This document shows positions 4,901 through 22,801 of a DNA stretch of 64,000 nt, one piece after another. The stretch is taken from the IMG/VR virus record IMGVR_UViG_3300028826_000074; one strand, 5' to 3'. This DNA is from a virus. The position numbers and the translations under genes are program-made. Positions within the stretch are counted from its first letter, which is position 1. Each line of letters starts with the position of its first letter. The notes beneath the pieces were generated by a model. That model ran no database searches, was not told where the DNA came from, and saw nothing but the letters and a program-made list of their open reading frames with translations.

Positions 4901-6802
4901 TTAGACGCCGACTGGCGCCCCGATTGGGGGTCCTGCTCCAAGGAGGGCTGCGAGCATAGGATCAATGGCAGATCCTCCAAGAGCCGCTGCCGGTGCCGGC
5001 GCAGCCAGTCCCGGAGGAATAGGCATCGCCCCTCCTCCGCCGAGCATTCCCAAAAGTTCAGGGGGGATTCCTCCGAGGAGGGCGTCTGGCCCTCCAACGA
5101 ACTCGGGATTAGGCTGCTCTGCCGGTGCGGGGGTAGCGATGTTGGTTGTGTCGACAATGATGTTCTCCATGGACACAGGCATGTCCAAATTGTTCTGGAA
5201 GAACTTTAGCAGACCTACCTTGGAAATAGCGATGCCCTGGTTCACGACGCCAACGGTGCCGGCCTGGATGTCCTCCAGCCACGGGATCCCGAGCGTTGTG
5301 ATGATCTCCATGAAGAGCTCGATTTTCTTCTGAATGAGTTCTGGGTTGTTGTTGGCGCCCTGCCCGTTCGGGCCGATCTTATAGCGCAGCTTCCAGTCTT
5401 TGGCGCTCGTCGTTTTAAGCCGATCGCCGTGGAACCGCTTGAACGACTTGAAGTTTCTGGCGATCAGGATCTGCATGAACTGGATCGCGCGGATCTCCTC
5501 ATCGAAGAAGTTGTGGCGCTTCTCCTCGCCCTCGTCCGCCGTACCCTGGAGCGCCCCGCCGGTGGCGGTCGCGCTTTGGCTGGCCTCCGGTAGCTGCCCG
5601 GCGGCCACATCAGAGAACCCGGTCACGCCTTCGGCGTAGGTTTTAGCGTCGTTCGCGAGCCCCGCAAGGTCCTTATCGGACGGTGTGGTGGTCTGCACGA
5701 CCGTGAACTTGGGGTCGCCCCGGAACATCATCATGTCGCCCATTCCGGCCGCTTGCTGGGTCATTTCGCCCGTGTAGCCTGCGACGAGGATGGTGCGCTT
5801 AAACGCCGCGACGGCCGACATCAGGCGAGTGAACTGCGCGTCGTTGAGCTCCGCCACCATCGGAATGATGGAGCTGGCGAGGCTGTGCGTTGGCCAGAAG
5901 TCTAGCGGGTCGTACTCGAAGCCTGGCGCGAAGTATTCCGGCATCGGTAGGTCGTATTCCGTGAGGTAGAGCATGCACCGCTGGTCCAGGTGCATCGTGA
6001 ATCGCCACGCCTTCAGCGGCTTCGACTTGTCCATGCCCGTTGGCAGGCGAGCGATGCCGGTGTAGAGATTAGGCTCAAAATTGTCTTCTGATACTCCGTC
6101 CGTGTCTTGGTCGTGAACGGGCGCGAATGGCGCGATATCCTCGCTGAAGTATTCGCCGCGCGCGCGCATCTCCTCAATCTCGAACATCGGGCGATTGGTG
6201 CGGTGCCAGATGCAGCGAGCCTCACTGAGGTCTCGGGCTTTGAGGGTGAACATCCCAAAGTCTTCCGCCAGGATGTACTCCTTGGTCGGCCCGGCGAACT
6301 CGATGTCCCCGTCCTTGACCTCCGCAACGTTGCGCCACCCCTCTCCACTCAGGCGCTCCTCCCACACGATGCGGTACGGGGATCTTGCGCTAATGGCCGC
6401 AATTCTGGCCGACTCGCGGAGCTTGACCTTGTATTTGTCGGCCTCCAGCGCGATCTGGGTGTCTCTCTCTCGAGCTTCCCGGAGGTCGGGATCGCCATCA
6501 CCAGAGAACACGTAGTACGGGTCCATGCCGTTCATCGCGCTGACGACGAGCCTCGAAACACCTTTAACCTGCTTCCGCAACAGAGGGTAGTTCTTCGGCT
6601 CGGCGTCTTTAACGATGACTAGGTTCGATGGGATCTTCTTGTCGTCGAAAACGTCCTGCGCGAACTGATAGCGCTCGAATTTCTCGCGCCGGGATGGGTC
6701 GTTATTGTAGGCGTCGATCATCAGGGCGATGGTGTCGGCCGCTTCTTTCAGCGAGTCTATATCCCACCCTTGCGGGATCTTCGCTGACTTGTCGCGCTTC
6801 AT
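4901..6802 (-). CDS. Phage A portal protein
   Basis: About 633 aa with a Pro/Gly-rich tail; lies between terL/GroES genes and the scaffold; ATG at 6802 preferred as start. Confidence 0.7.
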   Translation of the reverse strand: MKRDKSAKIPQGWDIDSLKEAADTIALMIDAYNNDPSRREKFERYQFAQDVFDDKKIPSNLVIVKDAEPKNYPLLRKQVKGVSRLVVSAMNGMDPYYVFSGDGDPDLREARERDTQIALEADKYKVKLRESARIAAISARSPYRIVWEERLSGEGWRNVAEVKDGDIEFAGPTKEYILAEDFGMFTLKARDLSEARCIWHRTNRPMFEIEEMRARGEYFSEDIAPFAPVHDQDTDGVSEDNFEPNLYTGIARLPTGMDKSKPLKAWRFTMHLDQRCMLYLTEYDLPMPEYFAPGFEYDPLDFWPTHSLASSIIPMVAELNDAQFTRLMSAVAAFKRTILVAGYTGEMTQQAAGMGDMMMFRGDPKFTVVQTTTPSDKDLAGLANDAKTYAEGVTGFSDVAAGQLPEASQSATATGGALQGTADEGEEKRHNFFDEEIRAIQFMQILIARNFKSFKRFHGDRLKTTSAKDWKLRYKIGPNGQGANNNPELIQKKIELFMEIITTLGIPWLEDIQAGTVGVVNQGIAISKVGLLKFFQNNLDMPVSMENIIVDTTNIATPAPAEQPNPEFVGGPDALLGGIPPELLGMLGGGGAMPIPPGLAAPAPAAALGGSAIDPMLAALLGAGPPIGAPVGV

Positions 6803-12637: not shown

Positions 12638-13216
12638 TCAGACCTCCAGGCCCGCCGCGTACAGTCCCAGCATGGCCATCTCCCGTGTCTTTACCACAAT
12701 TCTTCGGCTCCGCTGCGCAGACACTCCCAATTTTCTCTTCACGTCGATCTGCTGCCCGTCGTCAGCGAGGATGTGGAACGCGACCTTCTGCTCCTCCGTC
12801 ATGGCGCGCGTGGCGTGCTTGATCATGTCCTCCGCGGCGAGGTGCTGGGTTTCGTCCGCGGGATCCTCAAAGAGGTCGATCATCTCGGGCGTCATGGGCA
12901 CCATTTCGGGTCTGGTGGTGCCGGCCTTTCGGGTGGCCTTGCGGGTGGCCAGCTCGCGCATGCCGTCCTTCACGGTGTTTGAGAGAATGCTCAGCACGTA
13001 CGTCGAGAACGCGAACCCCTTACTGACGTCGTAGCGCTGGATCGCCTTCGCCATTGCCAGCCCCATGTTTGACTGGGCTTCGTCCAAATCGATCGCGCCG
13101 TTGGACCTCCGGTGCAGCTCCCACGCGTACTTCATGACGGCCTGGAAGTAGCGCTTTGCGATGCGGTCCCTGGCCCACTCATCTCCAAGTTTAGCCATGG
13201 CTAACAATTGCTCCAT
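12638..13216 (-). CDS. Phage-encoded sigma70-family sigma factor
   Basis: Region 2 (LAMAKAIQRYDVSKGFAFSTYV) and region 4 HTH (QIDVKRKLGVSAQRSRRI). Confidence 0.8.
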   Translation of the reverse strand: MEQLLAMAKLGDEWARDRIAKRYFQAVMKYAWELHRRSNGAIDLDEAQSNMGLAMAKAIQRYDVSKGFAFSTYVLSILSNTVKDGMRELATRKATRKAGTTRPEMVPMTPEMIDLFEDPADETQHLAAEDMIKHATRAMTEEQKVAFHILADDGQQIDVKRKLGVSAQRSRRIVVKTREMAMLGLYAAGLEV

Positions 13217-15904: not shown

Positions 15905-16197
15905 AACAACAGCATTGTAGCATAGTTTTCACCACCTATAACACCTTTTTGTCCCGAGCGCCAAAAAGGCAAAAAAATTTGAGGGTGGAGTATCCAGAGA
16001 CCCACCCCCCTGGCCCCCGGCCCCCCTCCATTACTTTAGCACCCACGCTAGCCTCCCTGCGCGCAGTACCTTAGCTAGTGCTGCGTGGCTGCCATGCACG
16101 TGCCCTGCCAGCCACGCACCAGGGCCTCTAGCGATAGGGCAGGCGGTGGTTCGACCAGGATCGAGACACCGCTAGCGACGGCCCTAGCGACCCTCGC

Positions 16198-16546
16198 GGA
16201 CCTACCTCGCCAGCCACCCTCGCCTTTATAGCCCTGCGGATAGGGGGCAAAGGCAGTTTTGGTGGACCTTGAGGACCTAGGTGGACCTCAAGCAGGTGGG
16301 GATAACTAGCAGTTTAGGTTCAAAATAGGGTTATCGCCTCCAGCAAAAGGTGGACCTCGCGGACCTTGAGGACCTAGCTGACTCCAAACGGCTGAAAGTG
16401 ATTTTTGCGGTGAAATTTTTCCGCCGTCTCAAGGCTAACAGGTCCTCCAGGTCCACCTTTTTATGGGGGTTATAACACCTTTTGAGTTCAAAATAGGGGT
16501 TATGCACACCTTTAATAGGTCCACCCTTTTTGGAGCAAGGTCCACC
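16198..16546. repeat. Symmetric GGTGGACC/GGTCCACC repeat array (putative origin or protein-binding array)
   Basis: GGTGGACC at 16261, 16280, 16349 and its reverse complement at 16450, 16518, 16539; 17 bp direct repeat GGACCTTGAGGACCTAG at 16264 and 16361; TTCAAAATAGGG(G)TTAT at 16319 and 16487. Confidence 0.6.
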
Positions 16547-16733
16547 CAGGTTCAATTGAACCTAGAAAAGGTTAGGGAGGCTAACGATCGGGCTGGAAGG
16601 GCTTGGCAAAGTGTAGCCATGGCTACAAATCCTAAACGACCCTTCAACCATGGCTTCTGGCCCACTTTCTTCTCAGGTTCAATTGAGTCTGATCTGGGCA
16701 CCTGGTAATAGTACGGGTTTTGCGCATGGTCAC

Positions 16734-16762
16734 TTGACATGGGTTCAAAGTGCCCCGATACT
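16734..16762 (+). promoter_or_regulatory. Sigma70-type early promoter of phage A
   Basis: TTGACA(16734-39), 17 bp spacer, GATACT(16757-62), facing the early gene cluster. Confidence 0.7.
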
Positions 16763-17034
16763 GTTGGTTGTAGGCAGGACGAGGTGGACCGAGGGAGCCA
16801 CCAGCCGCAGACCGACTTACCGCGAGGCACGCACCGCAAAAGCCTCAATAGGTTCCGCAGAAGCTATCCAGCACTTGATCGAGTCACGGATAGGAAAGTG
16901 GCGAAGGCGACCCAAAAACGGGCACGTCGAGTGGCAGGGCTTGAATCCCGAACGCAGTAAGACTGAAGCTGGAGTGGCACAGAGGGCGATACGTACTCAC
17001 CTAGCACAGTCTGCTCCATATTCTACATGGAGCA

Positions 17035-17087
17035 TCCTTAACCTCGCCACAGACGGTCCACAGCCCGTGCAAAGAGGGATGGAGGAG
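17035..17087 (+). ncRNA. Twister ribozyme (type P1), copy 1
   Basis: UCCU-UAAC-CUC-GCC..G-ACGG-UCCACAGC-CCGU..AAA-GAGG-GA-UGG-AGGAG: P1 UCCU/AGGA, P2 CCUC/GAGG, P4 ACGG/CCGU, pseudoknot CCA/UGG; predicted cleavage U17039|A17040. Confidence 0.85.
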
Positions 17088-17094
17088 TATTAAC

Positions 17095-17442
17095 ATGACT
17101 ATCACACCAATCTGTTTAGACACTTGTGAAACCGTCCGACTCATGGAATGGAGGCACGAATACTGCACTCTCTCAACGCTTCATGATTTCCGCACCAAGT
17201 ATGGTGGGAAGCCCACTGATGAAACCCCAGAATTGTGGGCGATCTTTGCCGGAACCGCATTGTCCAGCAACCCTGATTTCTATCACCGAGAGAAGTCTAA
17301 ATGGGCTACTTCCATCGTCATCCACGACGGGCAGGTCATCCGGTGTCAGGGCAATCAGTACAGGGTTGAGGTGCTCAAGGGATGTGAGTCATTCCCACGG
17401 TACTGCGACCCCATTAAATTCCATCTCATTAGCCCCGCATAG
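17095..17442 (+). CDS. Early hypothetical protein
   Basis: 115 aa; its SD AGGAG is the P1 3' strand of twister 1. Confidence 0.65.
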   Translation: MTITPICLDTCETVRLMEWRHEYCTLSTLHDFRTKYGGKPTDETPELWAIFAGTALSSNPDFYHREKSKWATSIVIHDGQVIRCQGNQYRVEVLKGCESFPRYCDPIKFHLISPA

Positions 17443-17444
17443 GG

Positions 17445-17502
17445 GCTTCTTAACCTCGCCAACGCCTGTCCACAGCCAGGGTCAAAAGAGGGATGGAGGA
17501 GC
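17445..17502 (+). ncRNA. Twister ribozyme (type P1), copy 2
   Basis: P1 GCUUCU/AGGAGC, P2 CCUC/GAGG, P4 CCUG/CAGG, loop UCCACAGC with CCA/UGG pseudoknot; cleavage U17451|A17452. Confidence 0.85.
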
Positions 17503-17507
17503 ACATC

Positions 17508-17684
17508 ATGGATTCACTCGACTTTATCATGGCCTACGAGGCCGGTGAGCTTGATTTCGACGCTATTGTGGAAGGCTTCCAGGGCCTGATTGACTCTGGC
17601 CTATGCTGGAGCCTCCAGGGTCACTACGGCAGGACCGCGGTCGCTTTGATCGAGGCCGGGCATTGCGTGAGGTCAGCGGCATGA
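17508..17684 (+). CDS. Small conserved phage early protein
   Basis: MDSLDFIMAYEAGEL...LIDSGLCWSLQGHYGRTA, a motif type I recall from other phage early regions; SD from twister 2. Confidence 0.7.
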   Translation: MDSLDFIMAYEAGELDFDAIVEGFQGLIDSGLCWSLQGHYGRTAVALIEAGHCVRSAA

Positions 17685-17821
17685 GGCCACATTATTGGTT
17701 GGCTAGTTCACCGTTGGGGTGGCGTATCATGGCCCAATATGGCGATTCACCGTGGGCTTGCCTAAGGATTGTACCGTCCGAACTGGAAGCGAGATACATA
17801 ATCGCCTGTCTCATTGACTAG
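17681..17821 (+). CDS. Small early protein (46 aa)
   Basis: ATGA-coupled; stop abuts the hairpin before twister 3. Confidence 0.5.
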   Translation: MRPHYWLASSPLGWRIMAQYGDSPWACLRIVPSELEARYIIACLID

Positions 17822-17832
17822 CCCCTCCGGGG

Positions 17833-17889
17833 GCTCCTTAACCTCGCCATCGCCGGTGACAAGCCCGGGTAAAGAGGGAGTCAAGGAGC
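17833..17889 (+). ncRNA. Twister ribozyme (type P1), copy 3
   Basis: P1 GCUCCU/AGGAGC, P2 CCUC/GAGG, P4 CCGG/CCGG, loop UGACAAGC with compensated pseudoknot GAC/GUC; cleavage U17839|A17840. Confidence 0.88.
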
Positions 17890-17895
17890 ATCAAA

Positions 17896-18108
17896 ATGAG
17901 CCGTAAGGACTACATCGCTATCGCCAAGTGCATCAGAGTCAGTCTGCCCCAAAGGACAGCCGTAGGGTACGCCATGGAGAAGCCTGATTTCTACTCCAAA
18001 TTCGCCATCGCCAACGATATTGCTATTGAGCTTGCCAAACTCATGAGCCAAGATAATGAGCGATTCGACGCGGACCGCTTCCTCGTCGCTTGCGGAGTCA
18101 AGTCATGA
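17896..18108 (+). CDS. Small conserved phage early protein
   Basis: MSRKDYIAIA...FDADRFLVACG motif; SD from twister 3. Confidence 0.7.
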   Translation: MSRKDYIAIAKCIRVSLPQRTAVGYAMEKPDFYSKFAIANDIAIELAKLMSQDNERFDADRFLVACGVKS

Positions 18109-18473
18109 CCCACGCCGAGCGCGTTGTGTGGGCCGCCGCAGTCATGCAGGCGGTCGCTGAGGCCTTTGATCACATCAAGGCCAATGAGGCCGCTTGGCGC
18201 AAGAGCATGCCCGGCAAGAGGCCCGTGAAGGATCGCGAGATCCTCACCCGTGCAATCAAGGCGGTGGAGCAATCGCTAGGCGAGCACGCCGATGTGTGGC
18301 CCGGAATGGCGCGATACGACGAGGAAGTCCGAACCACCAAGATTTACCTCGCCACGATTGGCACCGCAAATTCCAACTACCTGCGCCGGGGGCTGGGTGA
18401 CCCCGAGGGACGCATCCTCCACCCTGAATCAACAGTGGCCCAACGCAAGGCCAAGGAACTCAAATATGGCTAA
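18105..18473 (+). CDS. Early hypothetical protein
   Basis: ATGA-coupled, 122 aa. Confidence 0.6.
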   Translation: MTHAERVVWAAAVMQAVAEAFDHIKANEAAWRKSMPGKRPVKDREILTRAIKAVEQSLGEHADVWPGMARYDEEVRTTKIYLATIGTANSNYLRRGLGDPEGRILHPESTVAQRKAKELKYG

Positions 18474-18717
18474 GAAACCAGAAACCCCTCACCACTTGAC
18501 CTACCACGGTAACCCAATTTGCCGCTGTGGGTTCCTCACCATCGGCATGAAGTCCGGTGGGTTCTGCGGTGGATATAGGAGCCACCACGAGGCCCTTGTT
18601 GGGGCTCGCCAAATCGCCAAGCACAACGGGTTCGACGTGAGTCGGATCGAGGTTGTGCCGGGGCCGTGCCCAGAGACTCTGGTGGACGACCCAGAGGCCT
18701 TCGAAGCCCGCGAATAG
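18466..18717 (+). CDS. Early hypothetical protein (Cys/His-containing)
   Basis: 83 aa; stop TAG lies in the hairpin preceding twister 4. Confidence 0.55.
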   Translation: MAKKPETPHHLTYHGNPICRCGFLTIGMKSGGFCGGYRSHHEALVGARQIAKHNGFDVSRIEVVPGPCPETLVDDPEAFEARE

Positions 18718-18720
18718 CGG

Positions 18721-18777
18721 GCTCCTTAACCTCGCCACCGCCGGTGACAAGCCCGGGTAAAGAGGGAGTCAAGGAGC
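18721..18777 (+). ncRNA. Twister ribozyme (type P1), copy 4
   Basis: Identical to copy 3 except one unpaired base; cleavage U18727|A18728. Confidence 0.88.
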
Positions 18778-18783
18778 ATCAAA

Positions 18784-19152
18784 ATGATTCTGTTCAACCA
18801 GCACGATTTCAACGCGTATTGCCGCAATAATGTGGGGCGCAACGGCCCGGTGAACCAGGCGTGGGCAATCTCTCGATCTGACCATAACCGGCTCGTCAGC
18901 GTGCCCCTGGAGCCCAGCAAGAGCAAAGCCAACCCTAGCGGCATCGTGCGCTTGGGTGTTGCCGGCAAGGAGTACAGCCTGTACAGCCAACTCATGGCGT
19001 ATCTGAAGTCCAACCTCCACCTGCTCGCCAAGGGCGGGGAGCGGTTCCTCGTGACGTCCTGCACGCCGCATGGCACTGTTTGGGTCTGGCTACAACCCAA
19101 CACGCTCCCTCAGCCCGTGCGGTCCCAAGACAAGGATTTTGGTGTTGGGTAA
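18784..19152 (+). CDS. Early hypothetical protein
   Basis: 122 aa; SD from twister 4. Confidence 0.65.
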   Translation: MILFNQHDFNAYCRNNVGRNGPVNQAWAISRSDHNRLVSVPLEPSKSKANPSGIVRLGVAGKEYSLYSQLMAYLKSNLHLLAKGGERFLVTSCTPHGTVWVWLQPNTLPQPVRSQDKDFGVG

Positions 19153-19376
19153 TGGCTGAGCGAACCAACGACCAGAAGGGCAACAACGGACGCATGGCGG
19201 TGATCTCAATCACTGAGCGCGGGGAGCCGATGGAGGACCGAATCACGGACGCCTTGGCTGACATCCTGCACTACGCCAAGAGTTGCGGCCTAGACCCGCG
19301 AGCACTGATTGAGCGCGCTATGCGCCACCACCTGGCGGAGTCCAACGCTCACGCCAAAGACCCGGGAGCAATCTAA
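19152..19376 (+). CDS. Small helical early protein
   Basis: TAATG coupling; [11 protein letters not shown] helical motif. Confidence 0.55.
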
Positions 19377-19378
19377 TC

Positions 19379-19912
19379 ATGATCGAAATCAAATCAACCA
19401 CAGGTGTAGTCCTGAAAACCATTAACGCTGATACCCTGAGCGGGGCCAGCCTGAGCGGGGCCAGCCTGAGCTGGGCCAACCTGAGCTGGGCCAACCTGAG
19501 CGGGGCCAACCTGAGCGGGGCCAACCTGAGCGGGGCCAACCTGAGCTGGGCCAACCTGAGCTGGGCCAACCTGCGCGGGGCCAACCTGCGCTGGGCCAAC
19601 CTGCGCGGGGCCAACCTGAGCGGGGCCAACCTGAGCGGGGCCAACCTGAGCGGGGCCAACCTGAGCGGGGCCATTATTAACTGGGATAGCCATACGCTGA
19701 TCGCTGAAATCCTGTTGCGTGCGGCAGGGGATGACCCTAAGCTAAGAATGGTCGCTGGGTTGATCCTAGTGTCCACTGACTGGTGCTGGGACAAACTCCT
19801 TGCCATTCGCACACCGCACCGCAAGTGGGCACTGACCGAGCTTGCAAAGTGGATTCAAGACGGGGACGACCACCCCAAGATTCTGGAGGGCTATTGTGTA
19901 TCCAAATCCTAA
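19379..19912 (+). CDS. Pentapeptide-repeat protein
   Basis: About 16 (G/W)A(N/S)L(S/R) repeats encoded by near-perfect 15 bp tandem repeats (about 19436-19670), plus a C-terminal Trp-rich domain. Confidence 0.9.
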
Positions 19913-20002
19913 GAAACGACTCGACCCTAAGCGATTCCGGTGGAGTCGCAGAGAGATGATCCGCAGGGCGCGACGCCAGATCGGCGCGTGTTTGGTGACC
20001 GC

Positions 20003-20299
20003 ATGAGCTTACAAGATCTCATGAAGACCGAGGTACTCAAGTTCGCGGTGGGGCGGGCGATATTCTGCCCCAAGTGCGGCAAGTGCCTGGACTGGAAATC
20101 GTCCACAACGGCGGAGTGGAGCACGAGCGAGGGGAATATGTCCATTACGGCGTGCAACGCGTGCTACGACCAACTCAAGGCCTCAACCAAGGCCAAAGTG
20201 GAGGCGGAGGGGCTGACGCTCCATTGCGACGACGAATACGACGGGGCGGTGCTCAGCCACCCCAAACTACCCTTGGAGGGACTATGCCTTACATTCTGA
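20003..20299 (+). CDS. Zn-finger protein
   Basis: CPKC...CNAC. Confidence 0.55.
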   Translation: MSLQDLMKTEVLKFAVGRAIFCPKCGKCLDWKSSTTAEWSTSEGNMSITACNACYDQLKASTKAKVEAEGLTLHCDDEYDGAVLSHPKLPLEGLCLTF

Positions 20300-20874
20300 T
20301 GAGTTTCAACGCCAAGGACGACCCGCAGTATCGGCAAGTCCTCACGACTGTTTACCCGGAGAAATTGCCGATTCGGCACGTGCTCCGGGAGCATATCTTT
20401 GGGGAGTCGCTGGACCCGGCGGTCAGTGTGTGGCTCCAGGACGTGCCCGGAATTGACCCCTACAGCATCGTAGCCTACGACGGCACGGTGTACTGGTGGA
20501 CGGAACAGGGCGAGCCCAACCCCGGAATCTATATGTGGGAGAGCATGCCATTGACAGGGTCCGCCATTGTGGTACCAGACGAAGGCCCGCCGCAATTTGT
20601 GAAGGTGACGCCAGTCAAGGCCAACTCATGGTACGACCGCGCCGCCCCCAAGCTCAGCGAGGTACTCATGACCCAGCCCCAGGTGGAGTTCGGATACGAT
20701 GACGACGAGTGGCGCAGGCCAACGCACGCAGGCATGGGAGGCTCGATGTACTTGCGCGAGGCCAGCCGGGTGTTCTGGCAATTACTCCTCAGCTTGCTTG
20801 GGCTACTGATCCTCGCGTGCGTGCTGATCCAGATCGGGATCGCCGCCGGGTGGTTCCCTCGAGGGAACAGGTGA
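20284..20874 (+). CDS. Hypothetical protein with C-terminal TM helix
   Basis: SD GGAGG; C-terminal LLLSLLGLLILACVLIQIGIAAGW. Confidence 0.55.
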   Translation: MPYILMSFNAKDDPQYRQVLTTVYPEKLPIRHVLREHIFGESLDPAVSVWLQDVPGIDPYSIVAYDGTVYWWTEQGEPNPGIYMWESMPLTGSAIVVPDEGPPQFVKVTPVKANSWYDRAAPKLSEVLMTQPQVEFGYDDDEWRRPTHAGMGGSMYLREASRVFWQLLLSLLGLLILACVLIQIGIAAGWFPRGNR

Positions 20875-21320
20875 GGGCGGATAACAGGCCGCTCCACCTG
20901 CCCAAGTGCCGCACGTTGGGGGTGGAGCGCATGGTCATCTTCATCCCCAGTGGCCCCCCAAGATTCTGCATGGCTCTGCTCGACTTGGGTATGCACGCCA
21001 TATTCACCCCAGTGATCACGGAGGCCGGGCTCAAGTTCGGCTTCAAGGTCGAGGCCATCATCCCCGGCGAGACGCGCAGTCAAATCTCCTGGGGCGTGGT
21101 CGTGAGCGACTTCGCGCAGTACATCAAGGACCTGGATCAGCACGAGTGGAATAAGATCCGCCGCCGCTTGGTTCGGGACGGGTTGTCGGCGGTGAGGCGC
21201 GCAGAGACGGTCGAGAAGATTGCGGCCCAACGCAAGGCCGCCGCGACTATATTGCGCAACGAGGCCATCATCGTTGCGGACACAATTGATTGGATGGACC
21301 GGAGGAAGAAAAGCAAATGA
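20871..21320 (+). CDS. Hypothetical protein
   Basis: GTGA-coupled start; 149 aa. Confidence 0.5.
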   Translation: MRADNRPLHLPKCRTLGVERMVIFIPSGPPRFCMALLDLGMHAIFTPVITEAGLKFGFKVEAIIPGETRSQISWGVVVSDFAQYIKDLDQHEWNKIRRRLVRDGLSAVRRAETVEKIAAQRKAAATILRNEAIIVADTIDWMDRRKKSK

Positions 21321-21622
21321 CGAGTATGACGAAGATTCAAATGGCGACACTGCTTGGGCTGGTCAGCCTGGGCCAGCACATGTACCGCACCGCGAGCGAG
21401 GTCATGGAGGCGAGGAAGGCATTCGAGCGAGGCGAGGAACCGTTAGGAAATTCGCCAGGATACGTAGGGAAGACCCTCTCTTGCCTCGCGGCGAGAGGGT
21501 ACGTGCGGAGGACATACTTCAAGGGAGTCCGAGTGTGGATTGCCACCCAGGAGGGCCAGAAGTTCGCTAGGAAACTCAAGCCAAGGCTCATGATTGACAA
21601 AATACTGGAGGACATCAAATGA
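21317..21622 (+). CDS. Possible winged-helix protein
   Basis: YVGKTLSCLAARGYVRR...WIATQEG pattern. Confidence 0.45.
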   Translation: MTSMTKIQMATLLGLVSLGQHMYRTASEVMEARKAFERGEEPLGNSPGYVGKTLSCLAARGYVRRTYFKGVRVWIATQEGQKFARKLKPRLMIDKILEDIK

Positions 21623-21984
21623 ATCTACAACCAACCGAAATCCCCGGGTACGGGCGCGTTGGGGAGAGCGGCAACATCGCCCCCTCCCGCCAGCATGTTC
21701 CCGGGTACGGGGAGCGGCTCCCCCAGGCCCTTGGCGAGCGCGAGCACATGGGTGTTGACGCCAGCGGCACCACCGTTATCCGCTACCCGAGCACTGAGCT
21801 CATGTGGGATCCCAGATGGGGCCGACAGGAGGACGTGGTCACGCGCCACGACGTGGTACCTACTGATGCCGCGGTGGTGGTCATGCGGGCGATGGATCGC
21901 GCCAGGCAGGCGGAGGAGGAGCGGGTGAAAGCCAAGACCCCTGACGAGATCCGGGCATGGAGGCGCAAGTGGCTAAACCTCTAA
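21619..21984 (+). CDS. Hypothetical protein
   Basis: 121 aa, SD GGAGG, ATGA coupling. Confidence 0.55.
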   Translation: MNLQPTEIPGYGRVGESGNIAPSRQHVPGYGERLPQALGEREHMGVDASGTTVIRYPSTELMWDPRWGRQEDVVTRHDVVPTDAAVVVMRAMDRARQAEEERVKAKTPDEIRAWRRKWLNL

Positions 21985-22310
21985 GGCTGACAGCCAACCA
22001 GTACAAATCCAAGGCCCCCCAAACAGCGGCCTATATGGTGCGCCAGTACGGCAACAAGGAGGACGCCGCGCAGATCGCGCGGCTCCACCACGACGAGCTC
22101 CCCGAGCACGCTCCCGAGCGCGCGTTCTGGCGCATGGTCATCGAGGCCATCAAGAAGAGGGAGGCGCCCGTGAAGAGGGATTATGTGCCGAGGCCCAAGA
22201 AGAAGGGCGACAGGATAGCAAAGACGATCTTCGTGGACGACGTCGAGTACAAGCAGGTCATCAACTTTCTCGGCCGGATCCGCGCCGGGTGGGACGGGAA
22301 GACTCCATAA
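21957..22310 (+). CDS. Hypothetical protein
   Basis: 117 aa in the early operon. Confidence 0.5.
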   Translation: MEAQVAKPLRLTANQYKSKAPQTAAYMVRQYGNKEDAAQIARLHHDELPEHAPERAFWRMVIEAIKKREAPVKRDYVPRPKKKGDRIAKTIFVDDVEYKQVINFLGRIRAGWDGKTP

Positions 22311-22351
22311 CTGCGTTCGGGGCCATGCCCGCATTGGTGTAATATGCGGGC

Positions 22352-22801
22352 ATGGCAAACGACCAAATTCCAATGGACGACGAGGGCGTGGCGACGTGCC
22401 TTCCGCCCGCCGGCACCTTATTTCCGTTCACCCGAAGCATCTCTGGGCATGAGGGTTCGGCACTCAACAACGCGATAACTATCGTTTCCGACGAGCGCGA
22501 CGAAAGTGGTGGGGCACACTACTACCAGGCCAGCATAGACAGCCCAGTCCATATTGCTCCAGTAGTCCAATGTATCATTAGGTTCCAAACAGGGCCACTC
22601 AAGGAGGCTGGGCTCAACGGGATATCAGATGAGGCCCTGCTCGCCATCGTTGTTGACCGGCTTGAAGGATTCAACGAGGGGCCGTACCGGTGCCGAGAAA
22701 ATTCGCTCGCTATCACTCACATTCAGGAGGCCTTACACTGGCTCCAGCATCGCACGAATTCAAGGCAAAGGCGAGGGGTGGAGGGGACCCACCAAGTTTA
22801 G
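22352..22801 (+). CDS. tad1: Tad1-like anti-defence sponge protein (Thoeris/CBASS signal sequestration)
   Basis: GGAHYY...IRFQTGPLKE...GISDEALLAIVVDRLEGFNEGPYRCRENSLAITHIQEALHWLQHRTNSRQRRGVEGT closely parallels the Tad1 sequence as I recall it ([70 protein letters not shown]). Confidence 0.75.
   Translation: MANDQIPMDDEGVATCLPPAGTLFPFTRSISGHEGSALNNAITIVSDERDESGGAHYYQASIDSPVHIAPVVQCIIRFQTGPLKEAGLNGISDEALLAIVVDRLEGFNEGPYRCRENSLAITHIQEALHWLQHRTNSRQRRGVEGTHQV

Follow-up and report, generated by a model that had tools for sequence, protein, structure and literature searches.

Here, we report four minimal twister ribozymes of type P1 in an operon of small genes carried by an uncultured tailed phage from a bioreactor metagenome (IMG/VR virus record IMGVR_UViG_3300028826_000074; the whole stretch of 64,000 nucleotides [nt] that was analyzed is called the window). 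The elements are 53 to 56 nt long and lie on the plus strand within 1.8 kb, co-oriented with the genes, and the 3′ strand of stem P1 is in every copy the sequence AGGAG, the Shine-Dalgarno (SD) motif of the following gene. At the sequence level, their identity as genuine twisters without P3 and P5 is secure, every feature of the class that sequence can test having been found. It is plausible that the phage cuts its own polycistronic mRNA with them, and we consider it probable that the operon transcript is cut constitutively into hairpin-ended pieces, with the SD freed through loss of P1.

The pattern TTAACCTCGCC-N22-32-AAAGAGGGA occurred 4 times in the window and 0 times in 100 dinucleotide-preserving shuffles, and UUAACCUCGCC ... 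AAAGAGGGA was common to all four elements (positions 16800 to 19000 read). In an Rfam search of the 2-kb stretch (E-value mode), the twister-P1 family (RF03160) aligned to all four over model positions 1 to 68 (34.3 to 46.1 bits; E, 1.6e-8 to 3.7e-5; Table 1), the sole large departure being a deleted P3 hairpin. No other ribozyme family was found in a whole-window E-value scan. A covariance model built from the four copies (R1, in which the pairs of the pseudoknots T1 and T2 were not included) scored twisters 1 to 4 at 76, 73.5, 80.1, and 80.3 bits and, with filters off, found no fifth copy in the window. The conserved core of the RF03160 consensus was present (UAA at the cut, which follows the U; GCC; the loop AAGC; AAA; and G-A after P2′). 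The permutation is type P1, with upstream and downstream mRNA leaving through the two P1 strands; the elements hold only P1, P2, P4, T1, and T2, and sensor domain, extra helix, and insert are absent, so they are not classed with ligand-responsive ribozyme switches of the aptazyme or glmS type.

Two points weigh against this assignment. None of the four elements reached the Rfam gathering score (67.2), which is a curated annotation threshold and not a biological feature of the twister class, and copies 1 and 2 have a C in place of the first A of the loop AA, one conserved position. The sub-threshold scores are explained by the deleted P3 hairpin, a stem that is optional in the class, whose essential stems are P1, P2, and P4 (PMC5408937). 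The loop position varies likewise in four other validated natural twisters (C in contigs L136, L176, and L211; T in L189).

Helices P4 and T1 covary within the window. P4 reads ACGG/CCGU, CCUG/CAGG, or CCGG/CCGG, with every cell paired and two pairs changing on both sides; T1, formed by the L4 loop and the strand after P2′, reads CCA/UGG in copies 1 and 2 and GAC/GUC in copies 3 and 4, with three of three pairs changing on both sides and all paired. A 19-row alignment was made of the window copies, copies from related phages, and twisters of unrelated IMG/VR and metagenome contigs. In it, P2 was 100% paired with both-sided changes in all 4 pairs, P4 was 100% paired with both-sided changes in 2 pairs, and T1 was 100% paired with 3/3 pairs covarying (CCA/UGG, GAC/GUC, CAC/GUG, CCC/GGG, and GAU/AUC). 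T2 (GC after P2 with GC of the loop) was 97% paired, with one G-C to A-U change and one G-U. P1 was 82% paired in the model register, a shortfall due to a one-base register shift in copies with AAGGAG; copies 3 and 4 have this register with one extra A, which may pair with the U preceding the cut. The observed covariation score was reached by 0 of 500 shuffles, and slid controls dropped to 30 to 56% paired. Because T1 and T2 stood outside the search model, they support the twister fold independently.

An initial annotation, made from the letters of the window, had proposed four type-P1 twisters with a covarying P4, a covarying loop-to-3′ pseudoknot, and AGGAG as the P1 3′ strand 6 to 7 nt before an ATG. 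The number of copies was confirmed by both the pattern count and RF03160, and the covariation of P4 (two pairs) and of T1 (all three pairs) by both-sided changes among the window copies; the placing of AGGAG was borne out in four of four. The twister call itself stands on the E-value match, the covarying P2, P4, T1, and T2, and the conserved core; by the Rfam model the family was matched for all four at the level of E-values and for none at the gathering score. Its description of the copies as intergenic is correct in that they occupy gaps of one co-directional operon, but copy 1 stands between a ~270-nt noncoding leader and the first gene. The G that it named as catalytic (17078, 17492, 17878, and 18766) immediately follows P2′ on the 3′ side, and we take it to be the equivalent of G45 of the Oryza sativa twister (PMC5408937).

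The cassette in related phages

A related contig, L233, was found through a homologue of the 122-amino-acid (aa) protein encoded downstream of copy 4 (56% aa identity). Its genes follow the order seen in the window, and it too has a sigma-factor-like gene and a regulatory gap of ~1.2 kb; the short contigs L234 and L235 were found likewise. L233 carries five twisters and L234 carries two, one of which (at 1263, the eleventh copy) is truncated by the contig end, its hairpin and the 5′ half of the ribozyme remaining. In 10/10 complete copies (window, L233, and L234), the order is upstream stop codon, GC hairpin, 4 to 5 nt, U-A cut, twister, (A)AGGAG, spacer, and ATG. The hairpins have 5 to 8 bp, the 45- to 52-nt upstream stretches fold at −11 to about −25 kcal/mol, and the 4- to 5-nt tail between hairpin and cut ends in CCUU. 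No U-run follows any cassette hairpin, and none of the hairpins was called a terminator. The spacer from (A)AGGAG to ATG is 4 to 8 nt in the six complete copies of the relatives and 6 to 7 nt in the window; the four window ATGs are starts also chosen by the gene caller of the public collection, and those of the relatives were likewise picked independently by a public gene caller. This hairpin-cut-ribozyme-SD-start cassette is a neat natural feature and possibly an undescribed one.

Individual parts of the cassette vary around fixed points. Hairpin stems differ (AGCCCC/GGGGCU, GCCCGC/GCGGGC, ACCCUC/GAGGGU, and GCCUCU/AGAGGC) while their distance to the cut is invariant, and the stem of hairpin 1 (UGCUCCAU/AUGGAGCA) is replaced in L233 by GGCCCAC/GUGGGCC at the same place, with the loop kept and three compensatory pairs. 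In the apparent orthologue of copy 3 in L233, P2 is wholly different (UGAC/GUCA versus CCUC/GAGG). The P1 5′ strand varies (CAUCCU, GCUUCU, GCUCCU, GCCCCU, and GGUCCU) and the 3′ strand is constantly AGGAG, the pattern expected if the 3′ strand is under a second functional constraint. Other genes of the phage use GGAG, GGAGG, or AAGGA 5 to 10 nt before the start, so AGGAG is a normal, strong SD in this phage.

Twister presence differs between the window and L233, and the cassette thus behaves as a movable module; on this comparison, ribozyme-bounded gene cassettes are gained and lost. The 115-aa gene together with twister 2 (17095-17501) is absent from L233 (4451-4520), where the DUF7417 gene directly follows the leader twister. 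Conversely, a twister precedes the 177-aa gene of L233, which equals the pentapeptide-repeat gene of the window in length and position and is its apparent counterpart, where the window has only a 2-nt gap.

Twisters 3 and 4 (17833-17899 and 18721-18787) form ~68-nt direct repeats with one mismatch, SD, spacer, and ATG included, through which the intervening genes could be deleted or shuffled. Five public contigs, from this phage or a relative, have an end that falls within a twister (L004, L005, L007, L234, and L235), as near-identical repeats break metagenome assemblies.

Proposed transcript processing and SD release

In the proposed mechanism, one transcript would run through the operon, probably from the promoter at 16734-16762, and each twister would fold during transcription and cut itself. 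The predicted products are a ~270-nt leader RNA, freed by twister 1 as a discrete molecule ending 3′ in hairpin 1, and mRNAs spanning 17040-17451, 17452-17839, 17840-18727, and 18728 onward. Upstream products would end in a hairpin and a short tail with a 2′,3′-cyclic phosphate, slowing 3′ exonucleases, and the 5′-OH of downstream products would be buried in the compact double-pseudoknot fold, blunting 5′-end-dependent decay. Before cleavage, the SD would be paired with the anti-SD-like CUCCU of P1; afterwards, the 4- to 6-bp P1 would span two molecules and dissociate, leaving AGGAG single-stranded at working distance from the ATG. Cleavage would thus separate the cistrons and free initiation from dependence on upstream RNA, serving constitutively for processing and insulation. 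Cleavage is expected to be constitutive because the ribozymes are minimal and have no sensor domain, and to call it an "ON switch" for translation, as the initial annotation did, probably overstates the case. A stronger proposal is that a subset of phages has recruited P1 as an anti-SD:SD clamp, a cistron being translatable only once cut free of upstream RNA, and that clamp and hairpin make up a movable, self-contained "cut, cap and initiate" cassette; we hold this tentatively, with doubt prevailing.

The P1 5′ strand with the U before the cut (GCUCCUU; 17033-17039, 17445-17451, 17833-17839, and 18721-18727) closely mimics the 3′ tail of 16S rRNA (CCUCCUUA). An anti-SD look-alike beside a hairpin would thus form the end of every upstream cleavage product.

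SD accessibility was estimated by pseudoknot-free partition-function folding, as were all the probabilities given here. The unpaired probability of the SD was 0.01 to 0.07 before the cut with 10 nt of 5′ context, 0.18 to 0.40 with 45 nt, and 0.27 to 0.60 in the 3′ product, a modest gain with cleavage. For a twister engineered to carry the SD in P1, reporter output in E. coli was 5-fold higher from the active than from the inactive form (PMC5052635). For the phage operon, the translational effect of cleavage is probably modest.

How widely P1 carries an SD was assessed in a sample drawn with one degenerate P3-less twister pattern from IMG/VR and JGI metagenomes and filtered for P2, P4, and T1 pairing; the sample is biased by its pattern, and 53 distinct non-window twisters were kept. 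An SD-like P1 3′ strand with a start codon 4 to 11 nt on was found in 4/53 (twice in L097 and once each in L108 and L210); L139 is a near-miss variant of L108. L097 and L108 also carry the upstream hairpin, and L097 has just one protein in common with the window phage (50% identity). To judge from this sample, the SD-in-P1 design recurs in a few lineages, yet it is a minority. The exact cassette pattern was not found in IMG/VR, and the whole records of L097 and L108 held no further twister copies. One L097 element (5978-6029) is a decayed twister, with AAUC in place of AAGC and no T1 3′ strand left; its upstream hairpin is the same as that of a good copy on the contig, and the element can serve as a natural negative control. 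A tie between twister and the DUF7417 family was considered and rejected. Model R1, which detects unrelated twisters at 35 to 65 bits, found none near DUF7417 homologues at 80 IMG/VR and 4 Logan loci, and with 84 twister-less loci the ribozyme is not linked to that gene.

Several observations weigh against SD release as a strong effect of cleavage. For copy 2, predicted SD accessibility does not rise after cleavage (0.29 versus 0.27). P1 has only 4 to 6 bp, the outer 1 to 3 of which compete with the upstream hairpin, and SD masking may be leaky. P1 is dispensable for twister cleavage (PMC5408937), so an SD-bound ribosome would not block cleavage and the clamp would leak in that way too. In the P1 format as engineered, absolute expression was reduced by the ribozyme that stayed next to the SD (PMC5052635). 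Overlap of SD and P1 is confined to the 4/53 above, and in several other sampled twisters the SD lies 5 to 9 nt after P1 (L107, L173, L201, and L228). The eleven copies of this lineage are paralogues and represent few independent events.

These points bear on the reading that the twisters are real and cutting while the P1-SD overlap is mere space economy with no measurable effect on translation of the next gene. We judge it unlikely, though it deserves weight: P1 may have any sequence and is not needed for catalysis, most sampled natural twisters have no SD overlap and some place the SD 5 to 9 nt past P1, the predicted accessibility gain is modest and for copy 2 nil, and fast constitutive cleavage would leave little time for an uncut state. 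Against it, three related phages retain the overlap in 10/10 complete copies despite changes in P2, P4, T1, and the hairpins, and the overlap recurs in the unrelated contigs L097, L108, and L210. The P1 5′ strand also remains complementary (CAUCCU, GCUUCU, and GCUCCU), and the engineered equivalent has a 5-fold effect (PMC5052635).

A true regulatory switch, with cleavage conditional on Mg2+, temperature, a ligand, a phage or host protein, or a terminating ribosome and the translation of each cistron timed by it, seems improbable. Its attraction is the position of the upstream stop codon in or beside the hairpin, 10 to 20 nt before the cut, where a terminating ribosome would melt the hairpin and touch the P1 5′ strand; hairpin and P1 also have 1 to 3 nt in common, permitting two alternative pairings. 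Nevertheless, the ribozymes are minimal and have no extra domain in P1, P3, or P5 able to sense, no alternative fold with covariation support was found, and twisters cleave within ~1 minute in vitro (k_obs about 2.4 per min; PMC5408937). That the elements are not ribozymes at all, but phage-sigma promoters, terminators, or a mobile intergenic repeat resembling a twister, is barely credible. The phage does encode a sigma-factor-like protein, every element follows a hairpin and repeats with high identity, and the Rfam cutoff is not reached; yet compensatory changes keep five helices, two of them pseudoknots needless for a promoter or terminator, no hairpin has a U-run or was called a terminator, the twister model matches at full length with the invariant core in place, and the decayed L097 copy shows what lost constraint looks like. 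On the five covarying helices and the hairpins without U-runs, the promoter, terminator, and mobile-repeat readings were rejected. Constitutive self-cutting with SD release through P1 loss is the reading that we retain.

The operon and its phage

The features of the locus are collected in Table 1. Operon junctions without a twister are overlapping stop/start pairs, and the genes there are for that reason taken to be translationally coupled. The stretch 17681-17821 has no gene called in the contigs that span it, and L008 has an overlapping call running off the contig end. It is probably coding and not a noncoding gap, since the DUF7417 gene of L233 is called as one 104-aa product and 58 + 46 = 104; the lengths suggest that this product is a fusion of the DUF7417 gene and the 46-aa open reading frame.

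Table 1. Features of the twister-bearing operon (window positions; cut sites are given as the two flanking positions)
Feature	Position	Strand	Evidence and details
Putative sigma-70-like promoter, TTGACA-17-GATACT	16734-16762	+	Consensus scan, 10/12 matches; −10 hexamer and flanks kept in L233
Conserved noncoding leader	16770-17011	+	Conservation versus L233; gene calls
Hairpin 1, 8 bp	17012-17034	+	Ends 5 nt before cut; −11.3 kcal/mol, z −3.3
Twister 1	17035-17087	+	RF03160 44.6 bits, E 4.1e-8; cut 17039/17040; P1 17035-17038/17083-17086; P2 17042-17045/17074-17077; P4 17053-17056/17065-17068; T1 17058-17060/17080-17082; T2 17046-17047/17063-17064; SD AGGAG 17083-17087, 7 nt before ATG 17095
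115-aa gene	17095-17442	+	No PHROG match; called in public contigs; stop TAG 17440-17442 inside hairpin 2, at loop-stem junction
Hairpin 2, 6 bp	17431-17447	+	Fold −12.0 kcal/mol
Twister 2	17446-17501	+	RF03160 34.3 bits, E 3.7e-5; cut 17451/17452; P1 17446-17450/17497-17501, one G-U; SD AGGAG 17497-17501, 6 nt before ATG 17508
DUF7417 gene	17508-17684	+	phrog_3908, E 1.7e-18; PF24192
46-aa open reading frame	17681-17821	+	Overlaps DUF7417 gene by ATGA
Hairpin 3, 6 bp	17820-17835	+	Loop UCCG; begins inside stop codon; 45-nt stretch 17795-17839 folds at −14.9 kcal/mol
Twister 3	17834-17888	+	RF03160 46.1 bits, E 1.6e-8; cut 17839/17840; P1 17834-17838/17884-17888; SD AAGGAG 17883-17888 (AGGAG 17884-17888), 7 nt before ATG 17896
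Three overlapping genes (70, 122, and 83 aa)	17896-18717	+	No ribozyme between; start/stop overlaps 18105-18108 and 18466-18473
Hairpin 4, 7 bp	18705-18723	+	Stop TAG 18715-18717 at loop-stem junction; 45-nt stretch 18683-18727 −17.4 kcal/mol, centroid keeping the 7-bp hairpin −15.3
Twister 4	18722-18776	+	RF03160 45.9 bits, E 1.7e-8; cut 18727/18728; P1 18722-18726/18772-18776; SD AAGGAG 18771-18776 (AGGAG 18772-18776), 7 nt before ATG 18784
Rest of operon: packed or overlapping small genes (122 aa, 74 aa, 177-aa pentapeptide repeat, and others)	18784-22801	+	No further ribozyme; gene calls, PHROGs, R1

The ~270-nt leader between promoter and twister 1 (16770-17039) is about 93% identical to that of L233 (an estimate over ~16775-17010), well above the stretch upstream of the promoter; the whole 574-column alignment with L233 has 85% mean column identity. 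Indels of 1 and 2 nt relative to L233 exclude a single conserved reading frame in the leader, and two compensatory pairs lie outside its terminal hairpin. No gene was called in the leader in 7/8 public near-identical contigs, the call in the remaining one (L004) lying upstream (16463-16708). The leader had no match in Rfam, and its motif GGAAAGTGGCGAAGGCGACCC had none in IMG/VR.

The ~1.2-kb region before the operon is nearly gene-free, with the L004 call (81 aa) as its one gene. Repeated boxes are densely set at 16190-16790, before the operon promoter and partly over it: at least 8 copies of GGTGGACC(T) or its complement occur, in both orientations, CCTYGNGGACCT occurs 4 times, and AGGTTCAATTGA palindromes lie at 16547-16563 and 16675-16691. 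The region looks like an operator or iteron field. That the operon is an early one can reasonably be guessed from the size and position of its genes.

The window is tailed-phage DNA, its phage identity resting on matches for terminase subunits, a tape measure protein, an endolysin, and a DUF3854 primase/helicase-like protein; a PIF1-type helicase and a sigma-factor-like protein are also encoded. The sigma-factor-like protein (192 aa; 12638-13216, minus strand) matches the PHROG for RNA polymerase sigma factor (E, 4.4e-12), and its gene adjoins the endolysin gene; L233 has a Sigma70_r2-like gene at the same relative position. The stretch occurs in four runs of one bioreactor study, which is possibly its source, with a small share in a fifth run; none of the five runs listed is on record as RNA. 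No close cultured relative was found, similarity in INPHARED being limited to the pentapeptide-repeat stretch, and searches of IMG/VR with the 748-aa primase/helicase-like protein and the 122-aa protein gave no relatives.

Relation to known systems

Both the ribozyme class and this kind of context are known, and the novelty is modest. A full-text literature search of incomplete coverage found no report of a natural twister in which P1 is the SD. The initial annotation had held that an SD-gated array was undescribed; for natural arrays this agrees with that search, but the SD-in-P1 arrangement itself has been built and tested in E. coli (PMC5052635). Apart from glmS, the role of bacterial and phage self-cleaving ribozymes has been called "largely elusive" (PMC6765202). 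With four copies and seven more in relatives, natural compensatory variants, and a layout that is workable when engineered, the locus is a compact test case and bears on whether phages couple mRNA processing, end protection, and translation initiation by self-cleavage. If the clamp cassette is real, synthetic ribozyme insulators would have a counterpart in nature, and bacterial and phage twisters a concrete biological role. These P3-less twisters fall about 20 bits below the Rfam cutoff and are missed by standard annotation pipelines.

The twister ribozyme class, type P1 included, was reportedly described by Roth et al. in 2014. Like other type-P1 twisters (class features from PMC5408937), the window elements have their termini in P1, a U-A cut followed by AC, and a total length of ~54 nt; P2, GCC, P4 with a U-NNN-(A/C)AGC loop, AAA, and P2′ follow, then G-A and the T1 strand. 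They share the double pseudoknot of T1 and T2, and the O. sativa form Osa-1-4 is likewise without P3 and P5. Unlike typical members, they have a short P1 whose 3′ strand is fixed as AGGAG.

Clustered hammerheads that flank prophage genes cut ~2-kb native polycistronic RNAs in vitro, and the cutting of long phage transcripts into gene-length mRNAs was proposed for them in 2011 (Perreault et al. 2011, PMC3088659); a like processing role has been suggested for bacterial twisters (PMC6765202). As in those hammerhead arrays, several self-cleaving ribozymes of the same orientation lie between small phage genes of varying identity, four in the gaps of the window operon and five in L233. The hammerhead arrays differ in ribozyme class and in having cleavage shown in vitro, whereas the window copies are known from sequence. 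No ribosome-binding-site overlap and no fixed upstream hairpin were reported for them, the main text containing no SD or ribosome-binding term (PMC3088659).

Also close in layout are the engineered platforms of Felletti 2016 (PMC5052635), in which a ribozyme stem pairs the SD until cleavage frees it, the P1 format having the same topology. The window copies have this feature in four of four, with the SD in a ribozyme stem and a start codon at working distance. The platforms carry the SD in P1 or P3 of a type-P3 scaffold and are artificial, single-copy, and often aptamer-fused, whereas the window cassettes are natural, arrayed, without aptamer, and furnished with a 3′-protective hairpin; in the platforms, as proposed here, cleavage also insulates the cistron from upstream sequence.

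Related engineered devices are hammerhead versions that mask the SD and the RiboJ insulator. RNase III processing of T7 early mRNA and of the lambda N leader was reportedly described by Dunn and Studier in 1973, Saito and Richardson in 1981, and Kameyama et al. in 1991. There, too, intercistronic cuts leave stabilizing 3′ hairpins, and some remove pairing that blocks a ribosome-binding site; RNase III processing needs a host protein and a long duplex, whereas here the RNA would cut itself and leave a 5′-OH and a 2′,3′-cyclic phosphate. Fungal and plant RNA viruses carry ribozymes whose self-cleavage is required for translation to begin (Lopez-Galiano et al. 2026, PMC13725137). The viral ribozymes of that study likewise lie in 5′ untranslated or intergenic regions just upstream of a start codon, but they belong to RNA genomes, are mostly hammerheads, and serve eukaryotic cap-independent initiation with no SD pairing.

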